Source: a virus (Duplodnaviria > Heunggongvirae > Uroviricota > Caudoviricetes). From it: a stretch of DNA of 19,785 nucleotides. The notes beneath the pieces were generated by a model. That model saw only the letters and a program-made list of their open reading frames with translations. It was not told the DNA's origin and did not search any database. Where the stretch lies: IMG/VR virus record IMGVR_UViG_3300000301_000085; one strand, given 5' to 3'. The stretch's first letter is position 1; each line of letters opens with the position of its first letter. Positions 3,607-19,670 of this stretch are shown in pieces. A program made the translations under genes and the position numbers.

Positions 3607-4884
3607 TCAGCCCTTTCCAGACGCTCTGCTTTTGTGNNNNNNNNNNNNNNNNNNNNNNNNNNNNNNNNNNNNNNNNNNNNNNNNNNNNNNNNNNNNNNNN
3701 NNNNNNNNNNNNNNNNNNNCAAGCAAGCTATTTACACGCTGGAAGTCATACATTTTTGCGGCACCAGATGAATTATCGATTCCCTGTGCGTTGTCCTGCT
3801 TCGTTCGCTCACCAGCTACACCAACTGAATGGTAGATTTCGTTAATCACCGTCTTAATCGTAGTGATGATCATCTGAGCTTGTTTCGGGTCTGGTGACAG
3901 ATAAAACGGCTGGTTTCCACCTTCAGAATCGTAGGTGAAGACTCGCTTTGTGCCCATTTCAAGCACTTTAGTGTGGTTTTCATCACCAGGTAAAAGCGAC
4001 TGTACCGGTATAGCCAACTGGCTAAATGTCTGATCCTGAATAATGGCATCAAGGTTTGACAGATAGTTTGCAACCGCACGATCAAGATAAGCGATATCAT
4101 CGATCAACGATGGGCTGAAATACGGTGATTCACTTTCTCCAATACAATCAACAGGAAACACAGGAACTACGCCGAGATTATGCTCACCGCTATCCTCTAA
4201 AATAACTTTTGCCTGACGGCGACCTGCTCCACCAGCGCCCTTCTTCACTTCCTCACGGAACAGATACCACTCGTTTTGTGTCCACAGACGATAACGTTGG
4301 TATTCCTGACCTGTAGAAGTAAAAGGATCTGCGTCATCACGAGCGACTTCCACAATTAACGCCCACAACATATTCCCGTCGTCGTCCCATGCCACATCAA
4401 GCATTTGCTGAGGTGAAATCCAGTAGGCGTAGGCGCGAGCATCTTTCTTTTTCTCGTCAGCTACTGACTCAACATCACCACTCATCGTGCTATCGACAAC
4501 AACCCATATGCGACCGTAAATAGACGACTGCAAATCAATAGCGGCCATAAATGAGTCAATAGAGGCATTCTGGCGAGTCGCACGTTTCCAGAAATTGCGG
4601 ATCTGCTCTGGTGCCTCTTCGATATTTCTATGAATGTCTTCTTTAAAGAGATATTTGTTGATGAGGTTTACCACCTCACGAGTGTGGTTGAAGCGATAAG
4701 CACGTTCAACTCGCTCCTTAAACTCCTGATCTCCCTCTTTAAAGTAACGAAAGATATTGTCTGTAAACCAACCACGCCCGCCAGCGTAAGTGCTGGCGAG
4801 GAAGTCCCAATGTTCTTTTTTCTTTTCGTATTCCGGGTGGCGTCGCGCCACCAGATCCTTAATTTGTTTGTCGTTCAATTCCAT
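3607..4884 (-). CDS. putative portal protein
   Basis: 425-aa ORF immediately downstream of terminase large subunit; TAAGGT SD before ATG 4884. Assignment by synteny and size. Confidence 0.6.
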   Translation of the reverse strand: MELNDKQIKDLVARRHPEYEKKKEHWDFLASTYAGGRGWFTDNIFRYFKEGDQEFKERVERAYRFNHTREVVNLINKYLFKEDIHRNIEEAPEQIRNFWKRATRQNASIDSFMAAIDLQSSIYGRIWVVVDSTMSGDVESVADEKKKDARAYAYWISPQQMLDVAWDDDGNMLWALIVEVARDDADPFTSTGQEYQRYRLWTQNEWYLFREEVKKGAGGAGRRQAKVILEDSGEHNLGVVPVFPVDCIGESESPYFSPSLIDDIAYLDRAVANYLSNLDAIIQDQTFSQLAIPVQSLLPGDENHTKVLEMGTKRVFTYDSEGGNQPFYLSPDPKQAQMIITTIKTVINEIYHSVGVAGERTKQDNAQGIDNSSGAAKMYDFQRVNSLLXXXXXXXXXXXXXXXXXXXXXXXXXXXXHKSRASGKG

Positions 4885-7361: not shown

Positions 7362-8316
7362 TCAGGGTTTCGGTACACACCATACAACGGANNNNNNNNN
7401 NNNNNNNNNNNNNNNNNNNNNNNNNNNNNNNNNNNNNNNNNNNNNNNNNNNNNNNNNNNNNNNNNNNNNNNNNNNNNNNNNNNTGTGAATGTCCTTGAGC
7501 AGCTTCACAATGCTGGCCTCGTCCACCAGACTGTCGGCAATGTCCTGAATCGTCGTGCCACGATTCCGCCCAGCTTTTGCCAGGGAACTGTTCTTATGGT
7601 AGTCCGCCACCAAATCGCGCAGCGCACGGCGACGACGAGACTCGCTCATAGCGAACAACTCTTTGACGATCGCCTCGTTATCACCCGGGTCGGAGCGGAA
7701 ATGGCGCTGGAACACACGCAGTGCACTTTCATAGCTCTTCGGTCGCTCAGGGCGGATGAACTTAAACCCTGCTTTCATGGCGAAGGGATTGTATTTGCTC
7801 ATCGAGGACTGGATCTCAATGATTGGCCGGTCATGCATCCTGCTAACCAGGTTAATCATTCGATAAGAGACGCCTACGCCACGATACTGAGTATCCACAA
7901 CTGAGCGACTGATCACCGCAAAGTTGTTATTCACGTACCGACCCCAGTANNNNNNNNNNNNNNNNNNNNNNNNNNNNNNNNNNNNNNNNNNNNNNNNNNN
8001 NNNNNNNNNNNNNNNNNNNNNNNNNNNNNNNNNNNNNNNNNNNNNNNNNNNNNNTTGGTTTCAACTTAGGAAACATGCGGTGGCGAGGTGCCAACAGTAG
8101 TTTCGGGTAAGCCATAACCACGACGCCCACCAGACGGTCATCAAGTTCGCAGCGATAGTAAGTTGGCGCGAAAGGTTTGCCGTCTGTTTTGTAGTGAAGC
8201 GACTTAAGAGCGTGCCAGTCCTCTACAGTCCCCTTTGTAACAGTCATTCGCTCCAGAAAGTCCAGATGACGCGGAAACTCTTCAGGGCGGTAGCGTTTAA
8301 TGATGATGTCCGTCAT
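7362..8316 (-). CDS. GNAT-fold acyltransferase-like protein with C-terminal extension (interrupted by masked segments 7950-8054 and 7392-7483; frame differs across the first)
   Basis: N-part LVGVVVMAYP (beta strand); C-part FAVISRSVVDTQYRGVGVSYRMINLV (R-G-x-G motif A-like) and NPFAMKAGFKFI (motif B-like); start ATGA-coupled to the upstream ATPase stop (8313-8316). Confidence 0.45.
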
Positions 8317-9064
8317 GAATGGACCTCATCATGAATACCATTGTGATATTCCACCTTCACGCGTTCTTTGTAGTGCTTGGTGATCTGCATATCAGGGCGC
8401 AGCGCGTTCTTCAGGTCTTCGTGAGTCGTCGCCACCATTACCGTCGCACCAACCTTTCGAGCGGCACGCTGGAGGTTAGACGCCACAACCTGAGCGGTTA
8501 CACGGTCGAGAACAGCGCCGAACTCGTCAGCAGCCCATACTTTAGCGCCTGACTCAATCAGTTTGGCAATCTTGAGACGATATTTCTGGCCGTCTGACAT
8601 TTCAGAAGGCTTGCGAACAAACAGATATGCATCGTTCAGACCAGCCATAGATANNNNNNNNNNNNNNNNNNNNNNNNNNNNNNNNNNNNNNNNNNNNNNN
8701 NNNNNNNNNNNNNNNNNNNNNNNNNNNNNNNNNNNNNNNNNNNNNNNNNCGCATCACTGGTCGTTTTGCCCAACTGATCGATGACGTTAACCTCATTATC
8801 GAAGGTAAAATCATCGATGGAGGCTACAGACAGCCCTTCATCCTTCATCTGTCGTTGCAACTCGCGCAGCACAACGGATTTGCCGGAACCGGATTGGCCG
8901 GTGATGTACACCACATCGCCCTGCTTCACTTCCAGCTCCAGATTGTCGTAAAGCGTCCACTCTTTTTCGTCCAGGCCAAGCCCGAACGACTCAGCGATTT
9001 CCAACGTGCGCGTGGTTTTATTTACGCGTGTCTGAAACGATACGTTGATGATGTATTTGCTCAT
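8313..9064 (-). CDS. ABC-type ATPase (nucleotide-binding-domain-like, ~250 aa; two ORF segments, frame changes at masked segment 8654-8749)
   Basis: Walker A YITGQSGSGKS; signature-like SDGQKYRLKIAKL; Walker B/D-loop VWAADEFGAVLD; H-loop MVATTHED; ATGA coupling to the ParB-like gene at 9061-9064. Confidence 0.7.
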
Positions 9065-9729
9065 GCAGCCATCTCCCCGGAAGAGATCTTCTCCGCATAT
9101 GCCACAAATGCGTCTACCCCGCTTTCTCCCGTCATTTCTTCCATATGGGCAAGCAAATCACCAACAACAATGGCAGAGCCAGCAGGGAGCGTTTTAAAGC
9201 CCAATACGTCGACAACACGTACTTCTTCCGCTGCAACTTCACGACTGATCTCGGTGTGTTCATCCTTCTGTCGTTTAGTTTCTTCGCCAAGATCGATAAC
9301 TAGCGAGTCGGTGTCCATTTCTTCTGTCATACTGCCAACGAGAACATTCAACTCACGCTCTTCAAAGCCGAAAACCTCGATATCGTCCAGAACAAGCGAC
9401 TCAAGCTCTTTCTGTAGCTTAATTGCATCGTAATCAATGCTGGCAAGTCGGTTATCTTCAAGGCGCTTCGCACGAACCTCGTCATCACTGAGATCATCGC
9501 GAACAATAACCGGTACGCGCTCAAGTCCAGCAAAAATTGCAGCCTCACGGCGGCCGTGGCCAGTAATAATTACGTCGTTCTTATCGACCGTAATTGGCTG
9601 GTCAAATCCGCGCTTTTTAATGGCTGCGGCCAGATCTCTGATCTGCTGTTCATCATGCTTTTTGGCATTCATCTCATAGGGAATAAGATCTGCCGGGTCG
9701 CGATATACGATTTCAAACTTTTTGGTCAT
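9061..9729 (-). CDS. ParB/Srx-like N-terminal-domain protein (paralog 2)
   Basis: ITGHGRREAA (GxxRxxA ParB box); ATG at 9729-9727 overlaps the upstream stop (TAATG). Confidence 0.75.
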   Translation of the reverse strand: MTKKFEIVYRDPADLIPYEMNAKKHDEQQIRDLAAAIKKRGFDQPITVDKNDVIITGHGRREAAIFAGLERVPVIVRDDLSDDEVRAKRLEDNRLASIDYDAIKLQKELESLVLDDIEVFGFEERELNVLVGSMTEEMDTDSLVIDLGEETKRQKDEHTEISREVAAEEVRVVDVLGFKTLPAGSAIVVGDLLAHMEEMTGESGVDAFVAYAEKISSGEMAA

Positions 9730-10409
9730 TACATACGCTCCTTGTAGTAGTCGACCAGCCACACCAGAGCCTCACCAGCGTTCTCCATTTCATTACCGGT
9801 GTTAATAGCCTGCTCTTTGATGATGTTTTTTATGGTTTCTGCAACACGATCTGACGCATCGAAAGTTACTTTGAAGCGCATGGTCTGATGTTCCGCACCC
9901 ACACGTTCGGTTTTCTCTCGTTTGTCGGTATCGACAGGCTCATCACTACCACGAGACAACGCCTCCAGTGCTTCAAGGTCGATTGCCGCCTCTTTTGCTA
10001 AAACCATCGAGATTTCGTCGTCATACGGAGCGATTTCAGACAGTTGATAGTCAAGTTCTGACTGAATTTCTTCAATGAAGCGTTGCAATGCGATTTGGTC
10101 GTCTTCACCGTATCGCTCGTTGTCCACCAGTGACATCTGTTTAGCTACGACATCGCTAATTTTGCCCACAGAAAGCACCGGAACCGTTGAAATTCCTTGC
10201 TCAATAGCAGCACGCCAGCGATGTTCACCGCCGAGGATTTCAAAAAATCCATCTTCAAGTTCACGAGCCAAAATTGGCTTAAAAAAGCCCAATTTTTCGA
10301 TAGAACCTTTCAGTTTTTCAAAATTCTGCGCACCAACCGAATTGGTGTTCCAGGTATTCGGGCGAAGGTTGGCAACATCAACCTGCAAAATCGTGATTTT
10401 TACATCCAT
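9729..10409 (-). CDS. ParB/Srx-like N-terminal-domain protein (paralog 1)
   Basis: ILGGEHRWRAA ParB box; ATG 10409 preferred over GTG 10427; first gene of the leftward operon. Confidence 0.75.
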   Translation of the reverse strand: MDVKITILQVDVANLRPNTWNTNSVGAQNFEKLKGSIEKLGFFKPILARELEDGFFEILGGEHRWRAAIEQGISTVPVLSVGKISDVVAKQMSLVDNERYGEDDQIALQRFIEEIQSELDYQLSEIAPYDDEISMVLAKEAAIDLEALEALSRGSDEPVDTDKREKTERVGAEHQTMRFKVTFDASDRVAETIKNIIKEQAINTGNEMENAGEALVWLVDYYKERM

Positions 10410-10491
10410 TTTATTGCTACAATCCACTAAGTAATCACTTACTTATTATAATAGCCAAATAACATACAAAAGGCACTAAGGAAAGAGGTTT
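10410..10491. promoter_or_regulatory. divergent promoter region with palindromic operator-like site
   Basis: TATAAT at 10447-10452, palindromic with its minus-strand counterpart; inverted repeat TAAGTAA-TCAC-TTACTTA at 10428-10445; AAGGAAAGAGG SD before ATG 10492. Confidence 0.5.
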
Positions 10492-12131
10492 ATGACTGTT
10501 CGGATTGTATCTAACGCAGTAAATGCGCTTATTTCTGGCGCAGATGACAAGGTAAAGCAACTGGTGCAGCAAATGTTGAGCTACGAAGTCGAGACTGGCG
10601 ACTGGAAGGGCACAAGCACGATGTTCAACTGGAGTAAAAACTCGTTCCCTGCTGGCTTTGCCAAGCCTGTAGCGGCGAACTTGAACAAGGCGGGCATCAA
10701 ATGTGTTCATATCCGCAAAGACAAAGCCCCGGCGCTTGGTAAACCAAATCCGGCGGTTAACCCATTCCCATACAATCCTGATTATGCATATCAGGATCAG
10801 ACTGTGGAAACACTGGTTCGAGAGGGAATGATGATTGCGCAGATCGCTACTGGTGGCGGGAAATCTAACGTTGCCTGCAAAGCAGCTGCACGTATCGGTC
10901 GAATGACATTATTTTTAACAACCCGCTCTGTTCTGATGTTTCAAATGGCCGAAAACTTCCAGAGATCCATCGACTACCGCGCCGAAAATGGCGAACCGTG
11001 GTTAAAAGACCAAAAGGTTGGAGTCATTGGCTCGGGTGAGTTCCAGGTATCACGACATATCAACGTCGCTACAGTTCAAACTCTGGCAAGTTTCCTTGAA
11101 GAACCACCACGCGATGCAACACCAGATAAAAAGAGCTACCACCTCAAACGTCGGGAGCTAGTGAAACGCTTCCTTTCAAGTGTGTCTCTGCTTATTCTGG
11201 AAGAAGCGCATGAGTCTTCAGGCTCTAATTTCTATGACATTGCCAGATTATGTGTGAACGCAGACTATCGTCTGGCGCTTACGGCCACGCCGTTCATGAA
11301 GGATTCTACAGAAGCCAACATGCGTCTGATGGCTGTGGCCGGTCGAATTGAAATTAAAGTCACAGAAAAGTACCTGATTGATCGAGGCATTCTGGCAAAA
11401 CCGTACTTCCTTTATCATAAAGTTGCTTACAAGCCAGACGAGGTCAGAATCAAGGCGGAACTTGCCAACAAACACCTTAATTTTAGAGTTGGTATGAGCA
11501 CCGCCTACCAAAAGGCTTATCAGTTGGGGATCGTGTATAATTTGGGACGTAACNNNNNNNNNNNNNNNNNNNNNNNNNNNNNNNNNNNNNNNNNNNNNNN
11601 NNNNNNNNNNNNNNNNNNNNNNNNNNNNNNNNNNAGGCCATAGTGCGCGAGGCATTGCTTTATAAGCAACATTCACTCAACTGCATGACTCTGGTTCGTC
11701 TTAAACGCCACGGGCAAATCCTGATGGAGATGATGAAGGAGTCAGGTCTTAAAGTTGATTTCATCTATGGGGAATCTAACCAGACGACAAGGCAAGCAAA
11801 GCTGAATAGTTTAGCGTCTGGTGAAATAGATGTTTTAATAGGCTCGACTATTCTGGATGTTGGTGTTGATGTGCCAAGCGTTGGTGCGGTCATTCTTGCT
11901 GGTGGTGGGAAAGCAGAAGTTGAAATGAGACAGCGTGTCGGTCGTGGCTTACGAGCCAAAAAAAATCAGGCAAACGTGTGTTTTATCACTGATTTCATTG
12001 ACATTAGCAACAAATACCTGTTGTCTCACTCTTATGAGCGAAAACACATCATCGACACCACACCTGGCTTTGCAGAAGGTGTATTGCCTATTGATGGAGC
12101 ATTCGATTTTGGAGTTCTGAAACGAGATTAG
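10492..12131 (+). CDS. superfamily-2 (DEAD/DEAH-like) helicase; two ORF segments across masked 11554-11634
   Basis: Motif I IATGGGKS; motif II LILEEAHES; motif III LALTATPF; C-terminal motif VI QRVGRGLR; ~110-aa N-terminal extension. Confidence 0.8.
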
Positions 12132-12438: not shown

Positions 12439-12873
12439 ATGAAGTCTCCCATACTGTTCACTTTCTGTTCTAAAACTAACATGAAATACTCGCTTCTCCC
12501 TCTACTAACGTTACCAGTGTTGATGCTTACCGCGTGCCAATCACGTCCAATATCAATCCATGACGCCAAACCAGCACCGCAGGCCAAAGTGTTCAAGTAT
12601 CAAAGCGCAGCGCCAGCTACGTTGGTGGTAATGAGAGACACAGGTTTTGTAGGAGCTGGATGTGATGCTTCCATTTTCATCAATGGCGAAACTGTCGCAA
12701 AACTGGCTACAGGCGAAAAAGCGACTTTTCATTTAAATGCCGGAGAANNNNNNNNNNNNNNNNNNNNNNNNNNNNNNNNNNNNNNNNNNNNNNNNNNNNN
12801 NNNNNNNNNNNNNNNNNNNNNNNNNNNNNNNNNNNNNNNNNNNCTCTTGAAGGTGCAGGTTTATGTGCTCTAA
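12439..12873 (+). CDS. putative lipoprotein (3' end uncertain, masked 12748-12843)
   Basis: GGGAGA SD; hydrophobic signal with lipobox-like LTAC then Cys (MKYSLLPLLTLPVLMLTAC); alternative start at 12481. Confidence 0.55.
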   Translation: MKSPILFTFCSKTNMKYSLLPLLTLPVLMLTACQSRPISIHDAKPAPQAKVFKYQSAAPATLVVMRDTGFVGAGCDASIFINGETVAKLATGEKATFHLNAGEXXXXXXXXXXXXXXXXXXXXXXXXXXXXXXXXLLKVQVYVL

Positions 12874-12909: not shown

Positions 12910-13440
12910 ATGGAGACACAAAAGCGTTCAGGGTGTTCACCAGCAATTCTGGTGACATCGACATTCTGCCAACAACTCTGTGATGACATGACAACCAAAG
13001 ATATTACCTACGGTATCCAAGCTGAACTCTGGCCGCGAGATTACACTAACGTTGAAAAANNNNNNNNNNNNNNNNNNNNNNNNNNNNNNNNNNNNNNNNN
13101 NNNNNNNNNNNNNNNNNNNNNNNNNNNNNNNNNNNNNNNNNNNNNNNNNNNNNNNNNNNNACAAATTCCTGTAAGGGTCACTCTCGAAGATGGCCAGGCG
13201 TTTTGCATGTACGTTTATGGCCTCATGCCATCTCGTAACAAAGTTGACCTTTGCCCAGCCCCTTTTGACAAAGAAAATCGTATAAGGCTCCCACTTGAAC
13301 GCATTAGTACAATTGAATCAGGTGTGGTTGANNNNNNNNNNNNNNNNNNNNNNNNNNNNNNNNNNNNNNNNNNNNNNNNNNNNNNNNNNNNNNNNNNNNN
13401 NNNNNNNNNNNNNNNNNNNNNNNNNTCAAAGGTCGACTAA
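12910..13440 (+). CDS. hypothetical protein(s); two masked segments, continuity unproven
   Basis: Open frame through masks 13060-13160 and 13332-13425; no recognisable motif; weak SD. Confidence 0.3.
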   Translation: METQKRSGCSPAILVTSTFCQQLCDDMTTKDITYGIQAELWPRDYTNVEKXXXXXXXXXXXXXXXXXXXXXXXXXXXXXXXXXXQIPVRVTLEDGQAFCMYVYGLMPSRNKVDLCPAPFDKENRIRLPLERISTIESGVVXXXXXXXXXXXXXXXXXXXXXXXXXXXXXXXXSKVD

Positions 13441-13539
13441 CAGTTCACCCTGATTATGTCGATAATCGGCCATCACGCCGCGATTTTTTTGCAATTTGCA
13501 ACCAAGCCTACAAAGCAAACAAATCTATAAGGGTGTACA

Positions 13540-13668
13540 TGGCGGATGGCCGTGAAATTGAGGGGGTGTCAGCAGGCGCAGATGCTTGTCAGGTTACACT
13601 ACGTGTCGAGAACGGTAGAAAAATAGTTGTTTTGTTCGATTGGGTTGAACGAATTTTGCCTTTTTGAG
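13540..13668 (+). CDS. small hypothetical protein (42 aa)
   Basis: AAGGGTG SD; ATG 13540; stop 3 nt before the next start; below the ORF-track size cutoff. Confidence 0.3.
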
Positions 13669-13670
13669 TT

Positions 13671-13979
13671 ATGAAATCGATATTGTTACCACCATTATTT
13701 TTACTTTGCTCAGTTGCGGCAAATGCAATGGACTATAAGCCTGTCATTCAGTCGCTGATGAATGACGTGTGCTCAACGTCTCAGAATGTATCAGTTTGCA
13801 TGTATCAATTTTCGGCAGCCGTAAAAGCAGGAAAAGCGATAGGTGAGAGTGTGGAACTGTGTAAGAAAGTGGCAAATGAAGAACGGGCAATGTTGGATTG
13901 CGAATCTAGCGAGTCATCGGCACAGTTCGTTGATGCGCTATTTGACACCAATCGTAAGGCTGTAGAGTCTGTTCAATAA
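13671..13979 (+). CDS. small secreted (periplasmic) protein, four Cys in mature part
   Basis: Signal peptide MKSILLPPLFLLCSVAANA with AxA cleavage motif; followed by a terminator. Confidence 0.55.
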   Translation: MKSILLPPLFLLCSVAANAMDYKPVIQSLMNDVCSTSQNVSVCMYQFSAAVKAGKAIGESVELCKKVANEERAMLDCESSESSAQFVDALFDTNRKAVESVQ

Positions 13980-13991
13980 ATCTATAAGGTT

Positions 13992-14022
13992 AATAACCGG
14001 CTAAGTCCGGTTATTATTTTTC
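13992..14022 (+). terminator. intrinsic terminator
   Basis: AATAACCGG-CTAAGT-CCGGTTATT followed by ATTTTT. Confidence 0.65.
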
Positions 14023-14147
14023 ACATCACTTCTTTATATCTATAAATCAAATAACCTAAATATATATAAGGTCTAAAGCCGGAATCGATTATTTATTTAG
14101 GGAACACCTTCGACGATCTCGCTTTTATTTCTAGGACTTTCATCCCT

Positions 14148-14204
14148 GCAAAAAATTTAAAAAAAACACTTGCAATCTTTTTTCGCATATCGATAATTGA
14201 ACTC
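14148..14204 (+). promoter_or_regulatory. strong sigma70-type promoter with upstream A-tract
   Basis: -35 TTGCAA (14170-14175), 16-nt spacer, -10 GATAAT (14192-14197); A-tract AAAAAATTTAAAAAAAA upstream (UP-element-like). Confidence 0.6.
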
Positions 14205-14262
14205 GTCGAAAGCGAAGACACTAACGACAATAAATTTTAAATTTACATAAGGAAAAATTATC

Positions 14263-14913
14263 ATGGCTAACATTATCATTTCTAAAAAATCCATCGTTGA
14301 AGCTGCTTCCATTGTATCCGATGAACTGCGCGAAAAAGCAGATCTGGCAACTCAAACATATAACGAACATTATAAAAATGGTACGCACACTAAAGCAGAC
14401 AAAGCAAATATGCAAGCTGCGACCACTAAACTTGCTTACTTCATCAACAACGTTGTAAACGCTGTAGAAGACGAAAAATTATGCTCTGTTTTCTACTATG
14501 CGATTAAAGCAAGCAAACAAGCGCCAGAAGTATTTTTCCGTGATGCAATGACTAATAGTTATTCTCTGGAAAAACTGGTTTATCTGGTTAAATCCATTAA
14601 AGCTGGCAAATGTGTTTATTCCGTCGCTGATATGTCAGGATCTCGTGTATTCGCTTTAATCGATATGATTAACGACGAGATCGACACGTTCACCAATGGC
14701 GCTGTTTTCGATTTAATGAATGAAGCTAAAAAAGCGTGTGAAATTAAATTGGACGCTGGCTATACTCAAGCCAACCAGTTGATCAATCTTTGCGAACGTC
14801 TTGGACTTGTTGAAAAAGTCAAAGGAGCTGGGAGCGCGAAAGCTGGTACTCAGCAATATCGCTTCATTAAAAATGATTTCTACAATTATTTAGCTGATGC
14901 TTTCAAAGCGTAA
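14263..14913 (+). CDS. hypothetical protein (216 aa), predicted to be highly expressed
   Basis: TAAGGAA SD 8 nt before ATG; AT-rich but uses host-preferred codons (GCT, GAA, AAA, ATC, TTC, CGT/CGC); no recognisable catalytic motif. Confidence 0.7.
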   Translation: MANIIISKKSIVEAASIVSDELREKADLATQTYNEHYKNGTHTKADKANMQAATTKLAYFINNVVNAVEDEKLCSVFYYAIKASKQAPEVFFRDAMTNSYSLEKLVYLVKSIKAGKCVYSVADMSGSRVFALIDMINDEIDTFTNGAVFDLMNEAKKACEIKLDAGYTQANQLINLCERLGLVEKVKGAGSAKAGTQQYRFIKNDFYNYLADAFKA

Positions 14914-14925
14914 TTAATGGAATCA

Positions 14926-14944
14926 AGCGCCCACTATGGGCGCT
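14926..14944 (+). promoter_or_regulatory. intergenic hairpin (attenuator-like), no U-tract
   Basis: AGCGCCCA-CTA-TGGGCGCT directly after stop 14913 and before SD AAGGAG; a second copy (right arm TGGGCGCTTTTTT) emerges from the mask at 15520-15535. Confidence 0.4.
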
Positions 14945-14961
14945 TTAAAGGAGCTTTAAAG

Positions 14962-15165
14962 ATGGTCAGCTATGACAAGATCCGCGCGGAATATCGCGCA
15001 AAGTATCGCGCTTATAAACTGGAATTAATCGATGATTTGATCGCGCAACGCGACCAATTAAATTTTACGTTTTCTGATTTGCTTAACAGCAAGCGAGATT
15101 GCAAGCGCAAACGTGAATACTTACGTTTAAGCGCATTAATCGGAAAACTTCAAAATTCTATTTGA
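14962..15165 (+). CDS. small basic protein (67 aa)
   Basis: AAGGAG SD 9 nt before ATG 14962 (ORF-track start 14917 lacks an SD); K/R-rich, helical. Confidence 0.5.
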   Translation: MVSYDKIRAEYRAKYRAYKLELIDDLIAQRDQLNFTFSDLLNSKRDCKRKREYLRLSALIGKLQNSI

Positions 15166-15186
15166 TTTTTTTTAAGGAGCTTAATC

Positions 15187-15567
15187 ATGTTTGTTCTTAT
15201 CGCTGGCGTTAACGTCCATAATGAATATTATGTTAATCGCATCGCTGGGATAGCTGGTTACGCTGGGCGCTCAGTCGAGTTTATCGATGAAACAACGCGT
15301 AAAATTGATTTATTGAGCGACCAGGAGCGAAAAAAAGCAGACGTGAACGACGCTGATATATTTTTAATGTTAAAAGCGTTTGTAGAAATGGGATTTAAAA
15401 TCAGTTTACACAAATNNNNNNNNNNNNNNNNNNNNNNNNNNNNNNNNNNNNNNNNNNNNNNNNNNNNNNNNNNNNNNNNNNNNNNNNNNNNNNNNNNNNN
15501 NNNNNNNNNNNNNNNNNNNATGGGCGCTTTTTTCGTTTCCAATACTCCCACCATAACGCGCCAATGA
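15187..15567 (+). CDS. hypothetical protein (3' end uncertain, masked 15416-15519)
   Basis: TAAGGAG SD before ATG 15187; N-terminal 76 aa readable; the post-mask tail may be out of frame. Confidence 0.45.
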   Translation: MFVLIAGVNVHNEYYVNRIAGIAGYAGRSVEFIDETTRKIDLLSDQERKKADVNDADIFLMLKAFVEMGFKISLHKXXXXXXXXXXXXXXXXXXXXXXXXXXXXXXXXXXXMGAFFVSNTPTITRQ

Positions 15568-15584
15568 TGGCGCGTTTTTTATTG
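15555..15584 (+). terminator. intrinsic terminator
   Basis: AACGCGCCA-ATGA-TGGCGCGTT followed by TTTTTTATTG. Confidence 0.6.
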
Positions 15585-15829
15585 TCTTTAACTCACTCCA
15601 ACAACATAAAAATAAGCGCCCAAATAACGCCATAGACGCGCTTTTATATCCTTACCAGTACATACCCATTACTTAACACATTAACGCGCTTAAAACGCGT
15701 TATATTGCGCTATAACGTATGGCTAATCATTGGCTTTTATTCTTGCTATGTGATCCGTGTTTATTTGTCGGCGCGGATCGGCATTTTGTGTTGTTCTGTA
15801 TCCGCTCGCGTATTATGTGCGCGTGATTT

Positions 15830-15872
15830 TTCACATAATCACACCACTTAATCACGTATGTGATTACGCTAC
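15830..15872. promoter_or_regulatory. cluster of TAATCAC/GTGATTA half-sites (operator-like palindromes)
   Basis: GTGATTTTTCACATAATCACACCACTTAATCACGTATGTGATTACGC; TAATCAC-N4-GTGATTA inverted repeat. Confidence 0.35.
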
Positions 15873-15994
15873 GAAAGAAATCTGGATGTCTCAGGTGACG
15901 AAAGTCATCATAATTTTCCCCGCTCACCTGTCCGACAACCGCTGGTTGGATTCCACCAGCTTCCCGATGTTTTTTCTACATAAAGGCGAATGCA

Positions 15995-16108
15995 GCCGTT
16001 TCCCGAAAAAATCCTGGCCGTTTCCCGTCGGCTCATGAATACGTTCCTCGCCGTTTCTGAAAATTTCCCTGCGGCAGCTGGTGGCTATAGAGAAAGGGCC
16101 GTTTCTGG
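15995..16108. repeat. four direct copies of CCGTTTC(C/T) (iteron-like)
   Basis: Copies at 15995, 16018, 16051 and 16099, in noncoding DNA between convergent transcription units. Confidence 0.35.
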
Positions 16109-16111
16109 CCC
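16096..16111 (-). terminator. terminator-like hairpin after gene 16121..16603
   Basis: GGGCC-GTTTCT-GGCCC; the minus transcript continues UUUCUCUAUAG. Confidence 0.4.
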
Positions 16112-16120
16112 TATTCTCAG

Positions 16121-17916: not shown

Positions 17917-18312
17917 TTAAGCGAATACGCTTTCAGGGATTAAGGTGTCAGCAGGAATGCCAGAGGTAATGCGCAGGCCGTACTGACCAATCCAGGTAGT
18001 GTTGGTATTCAGGCTGGAGGCGAATACGGTGTTAACCATATTCATCATGGTTTCAAACACCTCTTCATCAACCTGGCGGAAGTAGTTCTCGATTTTCAGC
18101 AGCAGCGGGTCAGTTGCATCGAAAATAGACTGGTATTGAGTCGCGTACTCGCCGCCGGAGGCATCACCTTTACGCACGATCGTACTGGCCTGGACTTCGG
18201 CACCAGTTTCGGTGTTGTACGTAACAACGGTGATTTTTGCCACATTCTTACCTTCGGCGGTTTCAGAGGCATAGTAAACATCAACTGTCAGTTTTTCGCG
18301 TTTAACGGTCAT
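17917..18312 (-). CDS. hypothetical protein (131 aa)
   Basis: GGAGAG SD before ATG 18312 (MTVKREKLTVDVYY...); own promoter; no palindrome element. Confidence 0.6.
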   Translation of the reverse strand: MTVKREKLTVDVYYASETAEGKNVAKITVVTYNTETGAEVQASTIVRKGDASGGEYATQYQSIFDATDPLLLKIENYFRQVDEEVFETMMNMVNTVFASSLNTNTTWIGQYGLRITSGIPADTLIPESVFA

Positions 18313-18345
18313 TTCACTCTCCGTAGTGTTTTGGTTATTTTTATA

Positions 18346-18374
18346 TTCTATGATCGTAAGTATGTACTTACAAT
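18346..18374 (-). promoter_or_regulatory. sigma70-type promoter for gene 17917..18312
   Basis: Minus strand -35 TTGTAA, 16-17-nt spacer, -10 TAGAAT. Confidence 0.5.
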
Positions 18375-18403
18375 ACAAAAAAGCCCCGTAAGGATGGCGG
18401 GGC
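18374..18403 (-). terminator. canonical intrinsic terminator after gene 18439..18750
   Basis: Minus strand GCCCCGCC-ATCCTTA-CGGGGC followed by TTTTTTG. Confidence 0.7.
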
Positions 18404-19373: not shown

Positions 19374-19670
19374 TTAATCTTCGTCGTCCGGGAACTCGCT
19401 GTGTACCGCGCCCACCAGCTCCCGCTTTTCATCTTCACTCAGCAGGTGCCAGATATNNNNNNNNNNNNNNNNNNNNNNNNNNNNNNNNNNNNNNNNNNNN
19501 NNNNNNNNNNNNNNNNNNNNNNNNNNNNNNNNNNNNNNNNNNNNNNNNNNNNNNNNTTCTGCCGGGACGAACGACCACAACTTGCGGTACAACTCCGGCC
19601 CCACTGCATCCAGACACTCAGCCAGGGAATCCACGCCCCACACCTCAACCGTCACAGGCATCTTAATCAT
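19374..19670 (-). CDS. small acidic protein (about 98 aa, middle masked 19457-19556)
   Basis: GAGGA SD before ATG 19670; acidic C-terminus EFPDDED. Confidence 0.5.
   Translation of the reverse strand: MIKMPVTVEVWGVDSLAECLDAVGPELYRKLWSFVPAEXXXXXXXXXXXXXXXXXXXXXXXXXXXXXXXXXXIWHLLSEDEKRELVGAVHSEFPDDED

Follow-up and report, generated by a model that had tools for sequence, protein, structure and literature searches.

An open reading frame (ORF) of 216 codons lies at positions 14263-14913 of a 19,785-nucleotide stretch of viral DNA (IMG/VR virus record IMGVR_UViG_3300000301_000085; this whole stretch is referred to here as the window). Comparison with related genomes indicates that it is a real, conserved and uncharacterised core gene of phage-plasmids of the SSU5/pHCM2/pMT1 type. 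We tentatively favour the interpretation that its product is a tightly gated DNA-binding protein of the lytic cycle, which would be expressed in a burst and would probably act at an array of sequence boxes upstream of its own gene.

The ORF is present, with its ATG start, where the initial annotation of this DNA had placed it. The nearest relatives of the region 13900-15700, together with the gene content of the rest, identify the window as an SSU5-like phage-plasmid of Escherichia coli. The region is closest to Escherichia phage CMS-2020a (97% identity), followed by PhiR41_1, Cyrano (pLF82) and SSU5 (83-95%) and several Klebsiella phage-plasmids (~78-85%). The protein belongs to PHROG 1513, the family that includes CYRAN_113 of phage Cyrano (97% identical), YPMT1.34 of the Yersinia pestis plasmid pMT1 (83.8%) and SSU5_120, and an identical (100%) protein is encoded on the E. 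coli plasmid NZ_AP022542.1. Clustering at 90% identity gives 102 clusters, nearly all full length (216 aa) and on contigs of 100-113 kb, and an exhaustive profile search of 1.84 billion representative proteins recovered only 23 family representatives. Records that carry the gene comprise 815 plasmids and 12 phages; the plasmid records are from Klebsiella (346), Escherichia (217), Enterobacter (91), Yersinia (62) and Salmonella (49). A gene order of two ParB_N genes with an ABC-like gene, then a helicase, then the 216-aa gene is retained in relatives in which the protein is only 31-42% identical. Searches with the 216-aa protein of Pfam, NCBIfam, PADLOC and PDB sequences gave no matches, PHROG 1513 being the sole match, and 18 family members searched against Pfam and NCBIfam returned only chance-level DUF2250, FtsK_gamma and ANAPC2 matches (E ≥ 0.02).

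The sequence upstream of the gene contains the promoter (TTGCAA-16-GATAAT) and the preceding A-tract that had been described, at 14150-14197. The promoter had also been called near-consensus, which it is not: just 9 of 12 positions match, and matches of this grade are as frequent in the AT-rich stretch as expected by chance (10 observed compared with 9.1 +/- 3.2 expected). It is credible because it is conserved across relatives, not because of its consensus score. In eight relatives the GATAAT, the TTG of the -35 element, the 16-nt spacer, the A-tract and the Shine-Dalgarno (SD) sequence are invariant while the flanking bases vary, and relatives further away have similar hexamers at the homologous place, such as TTGAAA-16-TATTAT in L017. 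The SD sequence reported earlier is likewise there, as TAAGGA 9 nt before the ATG, within a predicted leader that is unstructured around it (fold of -4.5 kcal/mol, z = -0.27). An intrinsic terminator at 13991-14016 insulates the operon from the transcription unit upstream. A sigma-28 promoter built on TCGATAA was ruled out, as there is no TAAA at -35 and the conserved TTG is found there instead; a cis-antisense promoter on the minus strand (14286->14257) was ruled out, as it is not kept in relatives. No LexA box was seen in the promoter region.

The gene is, as previously stated, of lower GC content than the structural region (38.4% compared with 46-52% for the capsid and terminase genes), and its GC content at third codon positions (GC3; 0.346) is the lowest among the 28 window ORFs tested. 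Low GC is a trait of the family, with values of 41% for the gene and 54% for the genome in the relative L005, and 33.5% and 41% in L017. The claim that the gene uses host-optimal codons stands in part. We calculated the codon adaptation index (CAI) with the Sharp-Li E. coli weights (Sharp & Li 1987), and the gene ranks third of the 28 window ORFs (0.452), with the major capsid protein at 0.62 and the neighbouring genes at 0.23-0.30. Resampling of synonymous codons from the usage of other Cyrano genes gave CAI values of 0.34 +/- 0.03 (all genes) and 0.30 +/- 0.025 (low-GC3 genes), which place the gene at z = 3.9 and 5.8, respectively. The bias is visible in individual codons: AAA is used 22 times and AAG never, GAA 12 times and GAG once, TTC 9 times and TTT once; GCT encodes 16 of 29 alanines; and GTG, ATA and the rare arginine codons (AGA, AGG, CGA and CGG) are absent. 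In Cyrano, CYRAN_113 (CAI 0.40) ranks 10th of 116 genes, alongside those for the tail tube, a gp32-like single-stranded DNA-binding protein and the scaffold. The bias is weaker in SSU5, Klebsiella and distant orthologues (rank 1st-5th of 9-20 local genes). Codon bias thus exceeds resampling, but adaptation is moderate and clade-dependent. Promoter, leader, SD and codons together give a gene that, as read from its sequence, looks built for high output. Separately, the ORF at 17917-18378 (minus strand; PHROG 2473) has a CAI of 0.459, equal to the level of the 216-aa gene, and CYRAN_107 in Cyrano has the second-highest CAI of that genome (0.527).

Transcript levels from a published re-analysis are available for Cyrano, an SSU5-like phage-plasmid of E. 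coli LF82, as log2 of fragments per kilobase per million reads plus 5, with a floor of 2.32 (PMC9928086 S1 table). Values for CYRAN_113 are 2.78 and 2.32 in overnight LB (two replicates), 2.8-3.2 across 1 h and 6 h in medium, 3.4 and 3.9 after 1 h in macrophages, and 5.67 and 5.49 after 6 h in macrophages (PMC9928086). The gene is therefore at or near the detection floor (2.3-3.9) in four of the five lysogen conditions, and 6 h in macrophages bring it to ~5.6. The adjacent gene CYRAN_114, of the FljA family, reaches 7-8 in these data and the helicase 5-8, and CYRAN_113 is not on the authors' list of lysogen-expressed morons (at least 5-fold above background; PMC9928086). Given the near-floor expression and the absence from this list, CYRAN_113, in common with the structural genes, is off while the element is a plasmid. 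The initial annotation had expected a gene made early in infection, to be contradicted by data showing it silent; the silence found concerns the lysogenic state only, as expected of a lytic gene. A search of the literature found no time-resolved expression data for any SSU5-like element. Outside the window, Cyrano L011:40268-40822 (CYRAN_43, 'hypothetical protein') is transcribed ~720-fold over the prophage background in lysogens (published LF82 RNA-seq), and what it specifies may be a non-coding regulatory RNA and not a protein.

A second host gives a view of how the gene is held off. Y. pestis pMT1 retains the whole block around the 216-aa gene, and arrays of a delta-hfq mutant showed YPMT1.34 up 118-fold and YPMT1.34A up 75-fold, with quantitative PCR (qPCR) values of 38.9-fold and 37-fold, respectively; the authors called this rise 'difficult to explain' (Geng et al. 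2009, PMC2704395). The published qPCR primers map to 35386-35585 and 36062-36218 of NC_003134.1 (CO92 pMT1). Because they map inside these genes, YPMT1.34 is identified as the orthologue of the 216-aa gene and YPMT1.34A as that of gene 3 of the operon (Table 1). The only other pMT1 genes to rise were YPMT1.54 (5-fold) and YPMT1.69 (2-fold) (PMC2704395), which argues against general prophage induction. Moreover, as a 118-fold excess of YPMT1.34 mRNA left the other phage genes almost unchanged, the protein is not a master activator, at least in the degenerate pMT1. We conclude that silencing of the operon depends on Hfq in Y. pestis, the one host concerned. A host-pathogen interaction database also lists YPMT1.34 (L022:35314-35964, UniProt O68752) as interacting with human beta-2-microglobulin, and the pair has been modelled (PMC12225977); since YPMT1.34 is a silenced phage gene, this interaction is probably not biologically meaningful.

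A candidate repressor of the operon is the FljA-family gene that lies upstream. Its frame is broken in ORF lists by the N-runs 13060-13160 and 13332-13425, and its C-terminal 44 aa, at 13533-13667, match the C terminus of CYRAN_114. The C-terminal domain of the Cyrano protein (L013:780-1301, minus strand) has sub-threshold Pfam matches to Hfq (E = 5.5e-4) and LSM (E = 0.018), and the protein in that position in L005 (6009-6524; 171 aa), which looks unrelated, has a sub-threshold Hfq match (E = 8.8e-3). These profile matches suggest that the FljA family may be built from Sm-like domains, which is of note given the Hfq dependence of the neighbouring operon. Control of fliC by FljA in Salmonella, and the prophage genes gated by Hfq and small RNAs (sRNAs) in P1 c4-ant and rac RalR/RalA, offer a regulatory analogy. 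Here, too, the carried element has a gene that is kept silent, perhaps after transcription, an FljA-family gene is adjacent, and silencing is Hfq-dependent in Y. pestis. Unlike in those systems, no sRNA or antisense partner was found by Rfam, leader-complement and duplex searches. The Cyrano genome contains no complement of the leader of 12 nt or more. A phage-encoded sRNA pairing with the leader was rejected, as the best duplex, at 81071, has the look of two start regions that resemble each other, and so was pairing of a 3'-end RNA (R box plus terminator) with the leader (-10.7 kcal/mol, weaker than the shuffled mean of -14.8). The Rfam scan of the region gave nothing at gathering score; the best match was Hrs1 ('Hfq-regulated sRNA 1'; 32 bits compared with 56.4), on the minus strand over two terminators (15518-15583).

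An AlphaFold2 model of the 216-aa protein, built on a 20-sequence alignment, has a mean predicted local distance difference test score (pLDDT) of 90.6 and a predicted template modelling score of 0.81. In the model, the N-terminal domain (residues 8-114) opens with a long alpha-hairpin formed by helices 8-38 and 44-69, after which come three helices (71-114), and the C-terminal domain (126-201) is a winged helix, followed by a terminal helix. DSSP assigns H126-137, E142-144, H145-158, H168-179, E183-185 and E198-201, with pLDDT >90 there; this H-E-H-H-E-E order is that of a winged helix (H1-S1-H2-H3 recognition-S2-wing-S3). The model has domain-level structural matches to many winged-helix proteins, and no full-length structural relative was found in the PDB or BFVD. 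The winged-helix domains of the ArsR/SmtB, MarR and PadR regulators, RTP and TubR are among the systems closest to the C-terminal domain; the protein is not a member of a curated winged helix-turn-helix family (MarR, ArsR, PadR or Rep_3), and a PDB profile search was empty. D164, T168, Q169 and G181 are among the residues that are invariant down to homologues with 21% identity, and Q172 is at least 90% conserved, so that the recognition helix begins with a T-Q-x-x-Q motif (T168, Q169 and Q172). The segment formed by this helix and the wing is net positive, with a glycine/lysine wing, and the isoelectric point (pI) of the whole protein is 7.6. The predicted fold points to a winged-helix nucleic-acid-binding protein, in which the lysine-rich N-terminal alpha-hairpin would probably drive oligomerisation.

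Upstream of the promoter lies an ordered array of boxes. From 5' to 3' it comprises one to four direct copies of the R box (AAATMTATAAGGK), a B box, a C box, and an AT-rich stretch with the A-tract that leads into the promoter. The same modules occur in the same order in relatives down to ~33% protein identity (L005, L006 and L017; L019 at 42%), and the spacings of 34 nt and 31 nt between the cores are fixed across clades, in which the sequence of the spacers is not conserved. The exact R 13-mer occurs in 1-3 copies per locus in 11 loci, always on the strand of the gene and 5' of it, and is absent from the other 100 kb of Cyrano; the B and C boxes are unique in the 108-kb Cyrano genome. Cyrano and PhiR41_1 also have the R box copy that lies within the FljA-family coding sequence, at the corresponding position. 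In the most distant homologues (20-24% identity), only B- or B/C-like boxes are present. Two of them, P0122 and P0127 (249 aa), are each preceded by ~1.5 kb that contain no genes, with an AT-rich stretch ahead of the gene itself. In L014 (P0122) the gene-free DNA carries B/C-like boxes and an array of 5.4 x 16-bp tandem repeats; in L021 (P0127) it carries GGGAAC (B-like) boxes and two 13-nt direct repeats. P0122 represents the one clade without R boxes, and its recognition helix reads TQTGK, compared with TQxxQ elsewhere. Such a module, strongly conserved, single-copy and apparently non-coding, is in keeping with an origin, a centromere-like site or a dedicated operator region. The R box resembles TATA-type motifs of T7 and T4 late promoters; a genome-wide phage promoter was ruled out, since TATAAGG occurs 6 times in 108 kb, with 3 of these clustered here. 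Promoters of the sigma-E type have a 16-nt spacer, and B and C together (GGAAC ... TCTAA) were ruled out as one, as theirs is 22-23 nt. An operator shared with the master repressor region was also ruled out, with no R/B/C-like site near CYRAN_45 or CYRAN_98.

These observations can be assembled as follows. The 216-aa gene is the first gene of a small, self-contained operon, core to SSU5/pHCM2/pMT1-type phage-plasmids, that appears built for an expression burst yet is locked off during plasmid carriage, by a lock that is Hfq-dependent in Y. pestis. The operon would be released at the start of lytic growth, most likely early, as the host-type promoter suggests. Its predicted winged-helix product would bind DNA, and the R/B/C array is its most plausible specific target because the T-Q-x-x-Q motif co-occurs with the invariant TATAAGG, the clade without R boxes having TQTGK. 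Binding at this unique site could build a nucleoprotein complex that serves as an autoregulated switch region or a lytic origin; because of its likely abundance, the protein may do more than occupy five sites and would also coat or bend further DNA. Orc1/Cdc6 with its lid and winged helix, the iteron-binding Rep initiators (RepA and pi) and P1 RepL provide an analogy among origin-binding winged-helix proteins. As in these systems, a winged-helix gene stands beside direct repeats, an AT-rich stretch and a promoter, and its silence in the lysogen is shared with P1 repL. The top Foldseek matches were to Orc1/Cdc6, covering helical lid and winged-helix parts only (template modelling scores of 0.25-0.31); unlike Orc1/Cdc6, the 216-aa protein has no AAA+ or P-loop domain. 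Unlike iteron-binding Rep proteins, it has one winged helix and not two, has no Pfam Rep match and is silent in lysogens, and, unlike iterons, the repeats are 22-457 nt apart and not in tandem, with the plasmid's own RepA encoded elsewhere in the genome.

Several points weigh against this assembly. Outside the E. coli clade the bias in codon use is modest, and high codon adaptation would be superfluous in a protein required at five sites. Taken as a whole, the winged-helix half has an acidic pI of 5.0, as in some protein-binding winged helices. It is equally possible that the array serves as operator for the FljA-family neighbour or for a host factor. De-repression of YPMT1.34 left nearly all other pMT1 genes unchanged, early timing is deduced from the host-type promoter, and the delta-hfq array compared mutant with wild type without a complemented strain, so that a second-site change in pMT1 is possible (PMC2704395). 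A more specific version of the scheme, in which Hfq, with or without the Sm-like FljA-family protein, locks the operon post-transcriptionally and the product then acts on R-B-C to fire lytic replication or commitment, seems to us quite unlikely. If it were true, the status of the host RNA chaperone would be wired directly into the decision between plasmid and phage, and the 100-fold YPMT1.34 signal in the Y. pestis delta-hfq mutant would be accounted for.

Very tight silencing in carriage, with a dynamic range of ~100-fold, and high-output translation signals would also suit an abundant early effector of host takeover or anti-defence, whose winged helix docks on a host protein or on non-specific host DNA and whose boxes keep a harmful gene off. 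Like early takeover proteins of the Ocr/ArdA type, the gene has a host-type promoter, strong signals for translation and biased codons, and is silent before lytic growth. The acidic winged-helix half and the confinement of the family to one phage-plasmid group are in keeping with it, as is a gene AT-richer than its genome in every lineage (for example, L005); a high AT content is typical of xenogeneically silenced or toxic genes. An anti-restriction or takeover protein is what the initial annotation had proposed, and the analysis does not bear this out: similarity to such families is zero in Pfam, NCBIfam, PADLOC and the PDB, and extends to none of Ocr, ArdA, ArdB/KlcA, Gam or other known families. 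With a pI of 7.6, compared with roughly 4 for the Ocr/ArdA mimics, and a different fold, the protein is not an acidic DNA mimic; its T-Q-x-x-Q helix and glycine/lysine wing look like those of a DNA reader, and the Y. pestis delta-hfq mutant is viable, though slow-growing, with the mRNA in excess. We consider such an effector possible but doubtful. An unlikely alternative, in our assessment, is that the array and the SD-like motifs are the target of the FljA-family (Sm/Hfq-like) repressor acting with Hfq, the 216-aa protein being an accessory to the T4-like machinery for replication and recombination whose genes surround it and not a protein that binds the array site-specifically. The FljA-family gene is directly upstream in most loci, contains one of the R boxes and is expressed in lysogens while the 216-aa gene is silent; its C-terminal domain and the positional analogue in L005 have the Hfq/LSM matches described above, and the operon is de-repressed without Hfq. 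Synteny with a UvsW-type helicase is universal, and ParB-nuclease-like proteins are also encoded around the gene. However, L006 and L014 have no FljA-like ORF beside the array, BLAST found none in L005, the Hfq matches are below the Pfam threshold, and what associates the 216-aa protein with the helicase is gene order. Salmonella FljA binds RNA.

A lytic-switch protein, be it a transcription factor or an antirepressor, that activates the remaining lytic programme would likewise have a winged-helix fold, silence in lysogens and its own tightly regulated promoter. This is very unlikely: the 118-fold de-repression in Y. pestis altered almost no other phage gene of pMT1, the boxes occur nowhere else in the genome and so define no regulon, and regulators are rarely codon-optimised (the CAI of the FljA-like gene is 0.22). 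We regard as extremely improbable a function in plasmid maintenance, a moron or defence gene, or a component of the virion. The AT-rich region has an accessory look and is near ParB-like genes, and the CAI is similar to those of the tail tube and scaffold proteins; however, the gene is silent in the plasmid state and left out of the published list of morons, the plasmid RepA and ParA are encoded elsewhere in the genome, PADLOC gave no match, and a virion part is unlikely for a winged-helix gene that lies outside the structural operon and on the opposite strand. No virion proteome was found in the literature. A gated lytic-cycle protein that binds DNA at its own upstream array is thus the reading that we prefer, tentatively, and the features on which it draws are collected in Table 1.

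Table 1. Positions in the window of the 216-aa gene, its control elements, its neighbours and the sequence gaps
Feature	Position	Strand	Remarks
R box copy AAATCTATAAGGG	13521-13533	+	exact 13-mer in 3' part of FljA-family coding sequence; rare codons ATA-AGG
R box copy AAATCTATAAGGT	13978-13990	+	overlaps stop codon of ORF 13671-13979 and runs into terminator stem
Degenerate R box ATATCTATAAATC	14036-14048	+	repeat family D1/D3
Promoter-proximal R box ATATATATAAGGT	14060-14072	+	TATAAGG core invariant in six clades
B box ATTATTTATTTAGGGAACACCTTCGA	14088-14113	+	core AGGGAAC starts 34 nt after TATAAGG core
C box TTTTATTTCTAGGACTTT	14123-14140	+	core TCTARGAC starts 31 nt after AGGGAAC
A-tracts, UP-element-like	14150-14155 and 14159-14166	+	directly 5' of -35; kept in 8 relatives
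Sigma-70-type promoter TTGCAA-16-GATAAT	14170-14197	+	-35 at 14170-14175, -10 at 14192-14197; 9/12 consensus positions
Predicted 5' leader (start predicted)	14204-14262	+	SD TAAGGA at 14248-14253; C/A-rich conserved segment
216-aa gene	14263-14913	+	PHROG 1513; orthologues SSU5_120, CYRAN_113, YPMT1.34; ATG start
Hairpin AAGCGCCCA-cta-TGGGCGCTT	14925-14945	+	-15.1 kcal/mol; no U-tract; after 216-aa gene, then SD of gene 2
Gene 2	14962-15165	+	67 aa, basic, pI 9.7; PHROG 6145
Gene 3	15187-~15417	+	76 aa; PHROG 1585; orthologue of YPMT1.34A; stop codon half inside N-run
N-run and operon terminator	15416-15533	+	104 N (15416-15519) replace 17 nt; visible 3' arm and U6 at 15520-15533
Second, tandem intrinsic terminator AACGCGCCA-atga-TGGCGCGTT and U6	15555-15582	+	-14.8 kcal/mol, z -3.9
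Intrinsic terminator of upstream transcription unit	13991-14016	+	10-bp stem, U5 tail; -12.6 kcal/mol, z -4.3
FljA-family (Flag1_repress) gene	13146-13667, start approximate	+	Pfam PF03614, E 4.6e-31; candidate operon repressor
N-runs	1884-2001, 3637-3719, 7392-7483, 7950-8054, 8654-8749, 11554-11634		
N-runs, rest	12748-12843, 13060-13160, 13332-13425, 15416-15519, 19457-19556		

Downstream of the 216-aa gene, the small gene at 14962-15165 is real, whereas the second ORF that had been reported there, 15187-15567, results from reading through an N-run, the true gene ending at ~15417 after 76 codons. Nor are the two small genes separated by hairpins, as had been thought: nothing lies between genes 2 and 3, and copies of a GCGCCCA/TGGGCGC hairpin bracket the pair instead. 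The first copy, at 14925-14945, is read as a partial terminator or an mRNA-stabilising stem. The 5' arm of the second is hidden by the N-run 15416-15519, and its sequence was read from CMS-2020a (-15.5 kcal/mol). Cyrano has two copies of the hairpin sequence in 108 kb, both in the operon of CYRAN_113, and TGGGCGCT occurs 6 times in the window compared with 0.47 expected. The genes between the copies vary: gene 2 is present in SSU5 and not annotated at its position in pMT1 or Cyrano, gene 3 is found in pMT1, a 76-aa gene is at that position in Cyrano, and the window has both. On this comparison, the arrangement looks like insertion of cassettes between duplicated terminator stems. The label 'MIT family metal ion transporter CorA' given to gene 2 (SSU5, PHROG 6145) is an annotation artefact, implausible for so small a product, a soluble basic protein of 67 aa. 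Beyond the terminators, ~550 nt of noncoding DNA with several hairpins (15568-16120) separate convergent transcription units, with direct repeats CACATAATCAC and CACTTAATCAC and then an inverted GTGATTA at 15832-15866; relatives have 600-750 nt of noncoding DNA at this place.

The minus strand of the window encodes the major capsid protein, scaffold, portal, large terminase, two ParB_N-nuclease-like proteins and ABC-ATPase-like proteins, and the plus strand the UvsW-type helicase, the FljA-family protein and the operon of the 216-aa gene. The two tandem ParB_N-nuclease-like genes and two small ABC/AAA-ATPase-like genes (7362-10427, minus strand) form a block that is beside and divergent from the helicase in every relative examined (L005, L006, L017, L019 and L020), and these genes are silent in Cyrano lysogens. 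The window contains 11 N-runs of 81-118 nt each. Five of the 11 could be compared with the 97%-identical relative, in which the real sequence that they replace is 1-23 nt each; the runs do not preserve length and therefore shift reading frames and create false ORFs. The frames of the UvsW-type helicase (10492-12131), the FljA-family gene and the ABC-like genes are broken in this way. The apparent split of the helicase into two genes (10492-11643 and 11643-12131) was rejected as such an artefact, N-runs of 81-104 N standing for 1-23 nt.

What emerges falls short of an unprecedented mechanism: an orphan protein with a winged helix, whose gate and cis-array are unusual. Should it prove to be no more than an autoregulated DNA binder of the ordinary sort, the gain would be modest, namely an annotation for PHROG 1513. 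The YPMT1.34 signal of the Y. pestis hfq mutant, long without explanation, now has a fold, as predicted, and a genomic context. Phage-plasmids of the SSU5 type, among them pMT1 of Y. pestis, are common among clinical Klebsiella, E. coli, Enterobacter and Salmonella. The 216-aa gene belongs to the small number of core genes specific to this family whose regulatory signature is clear, and it offers a handle on the switch between plasmid and phage.

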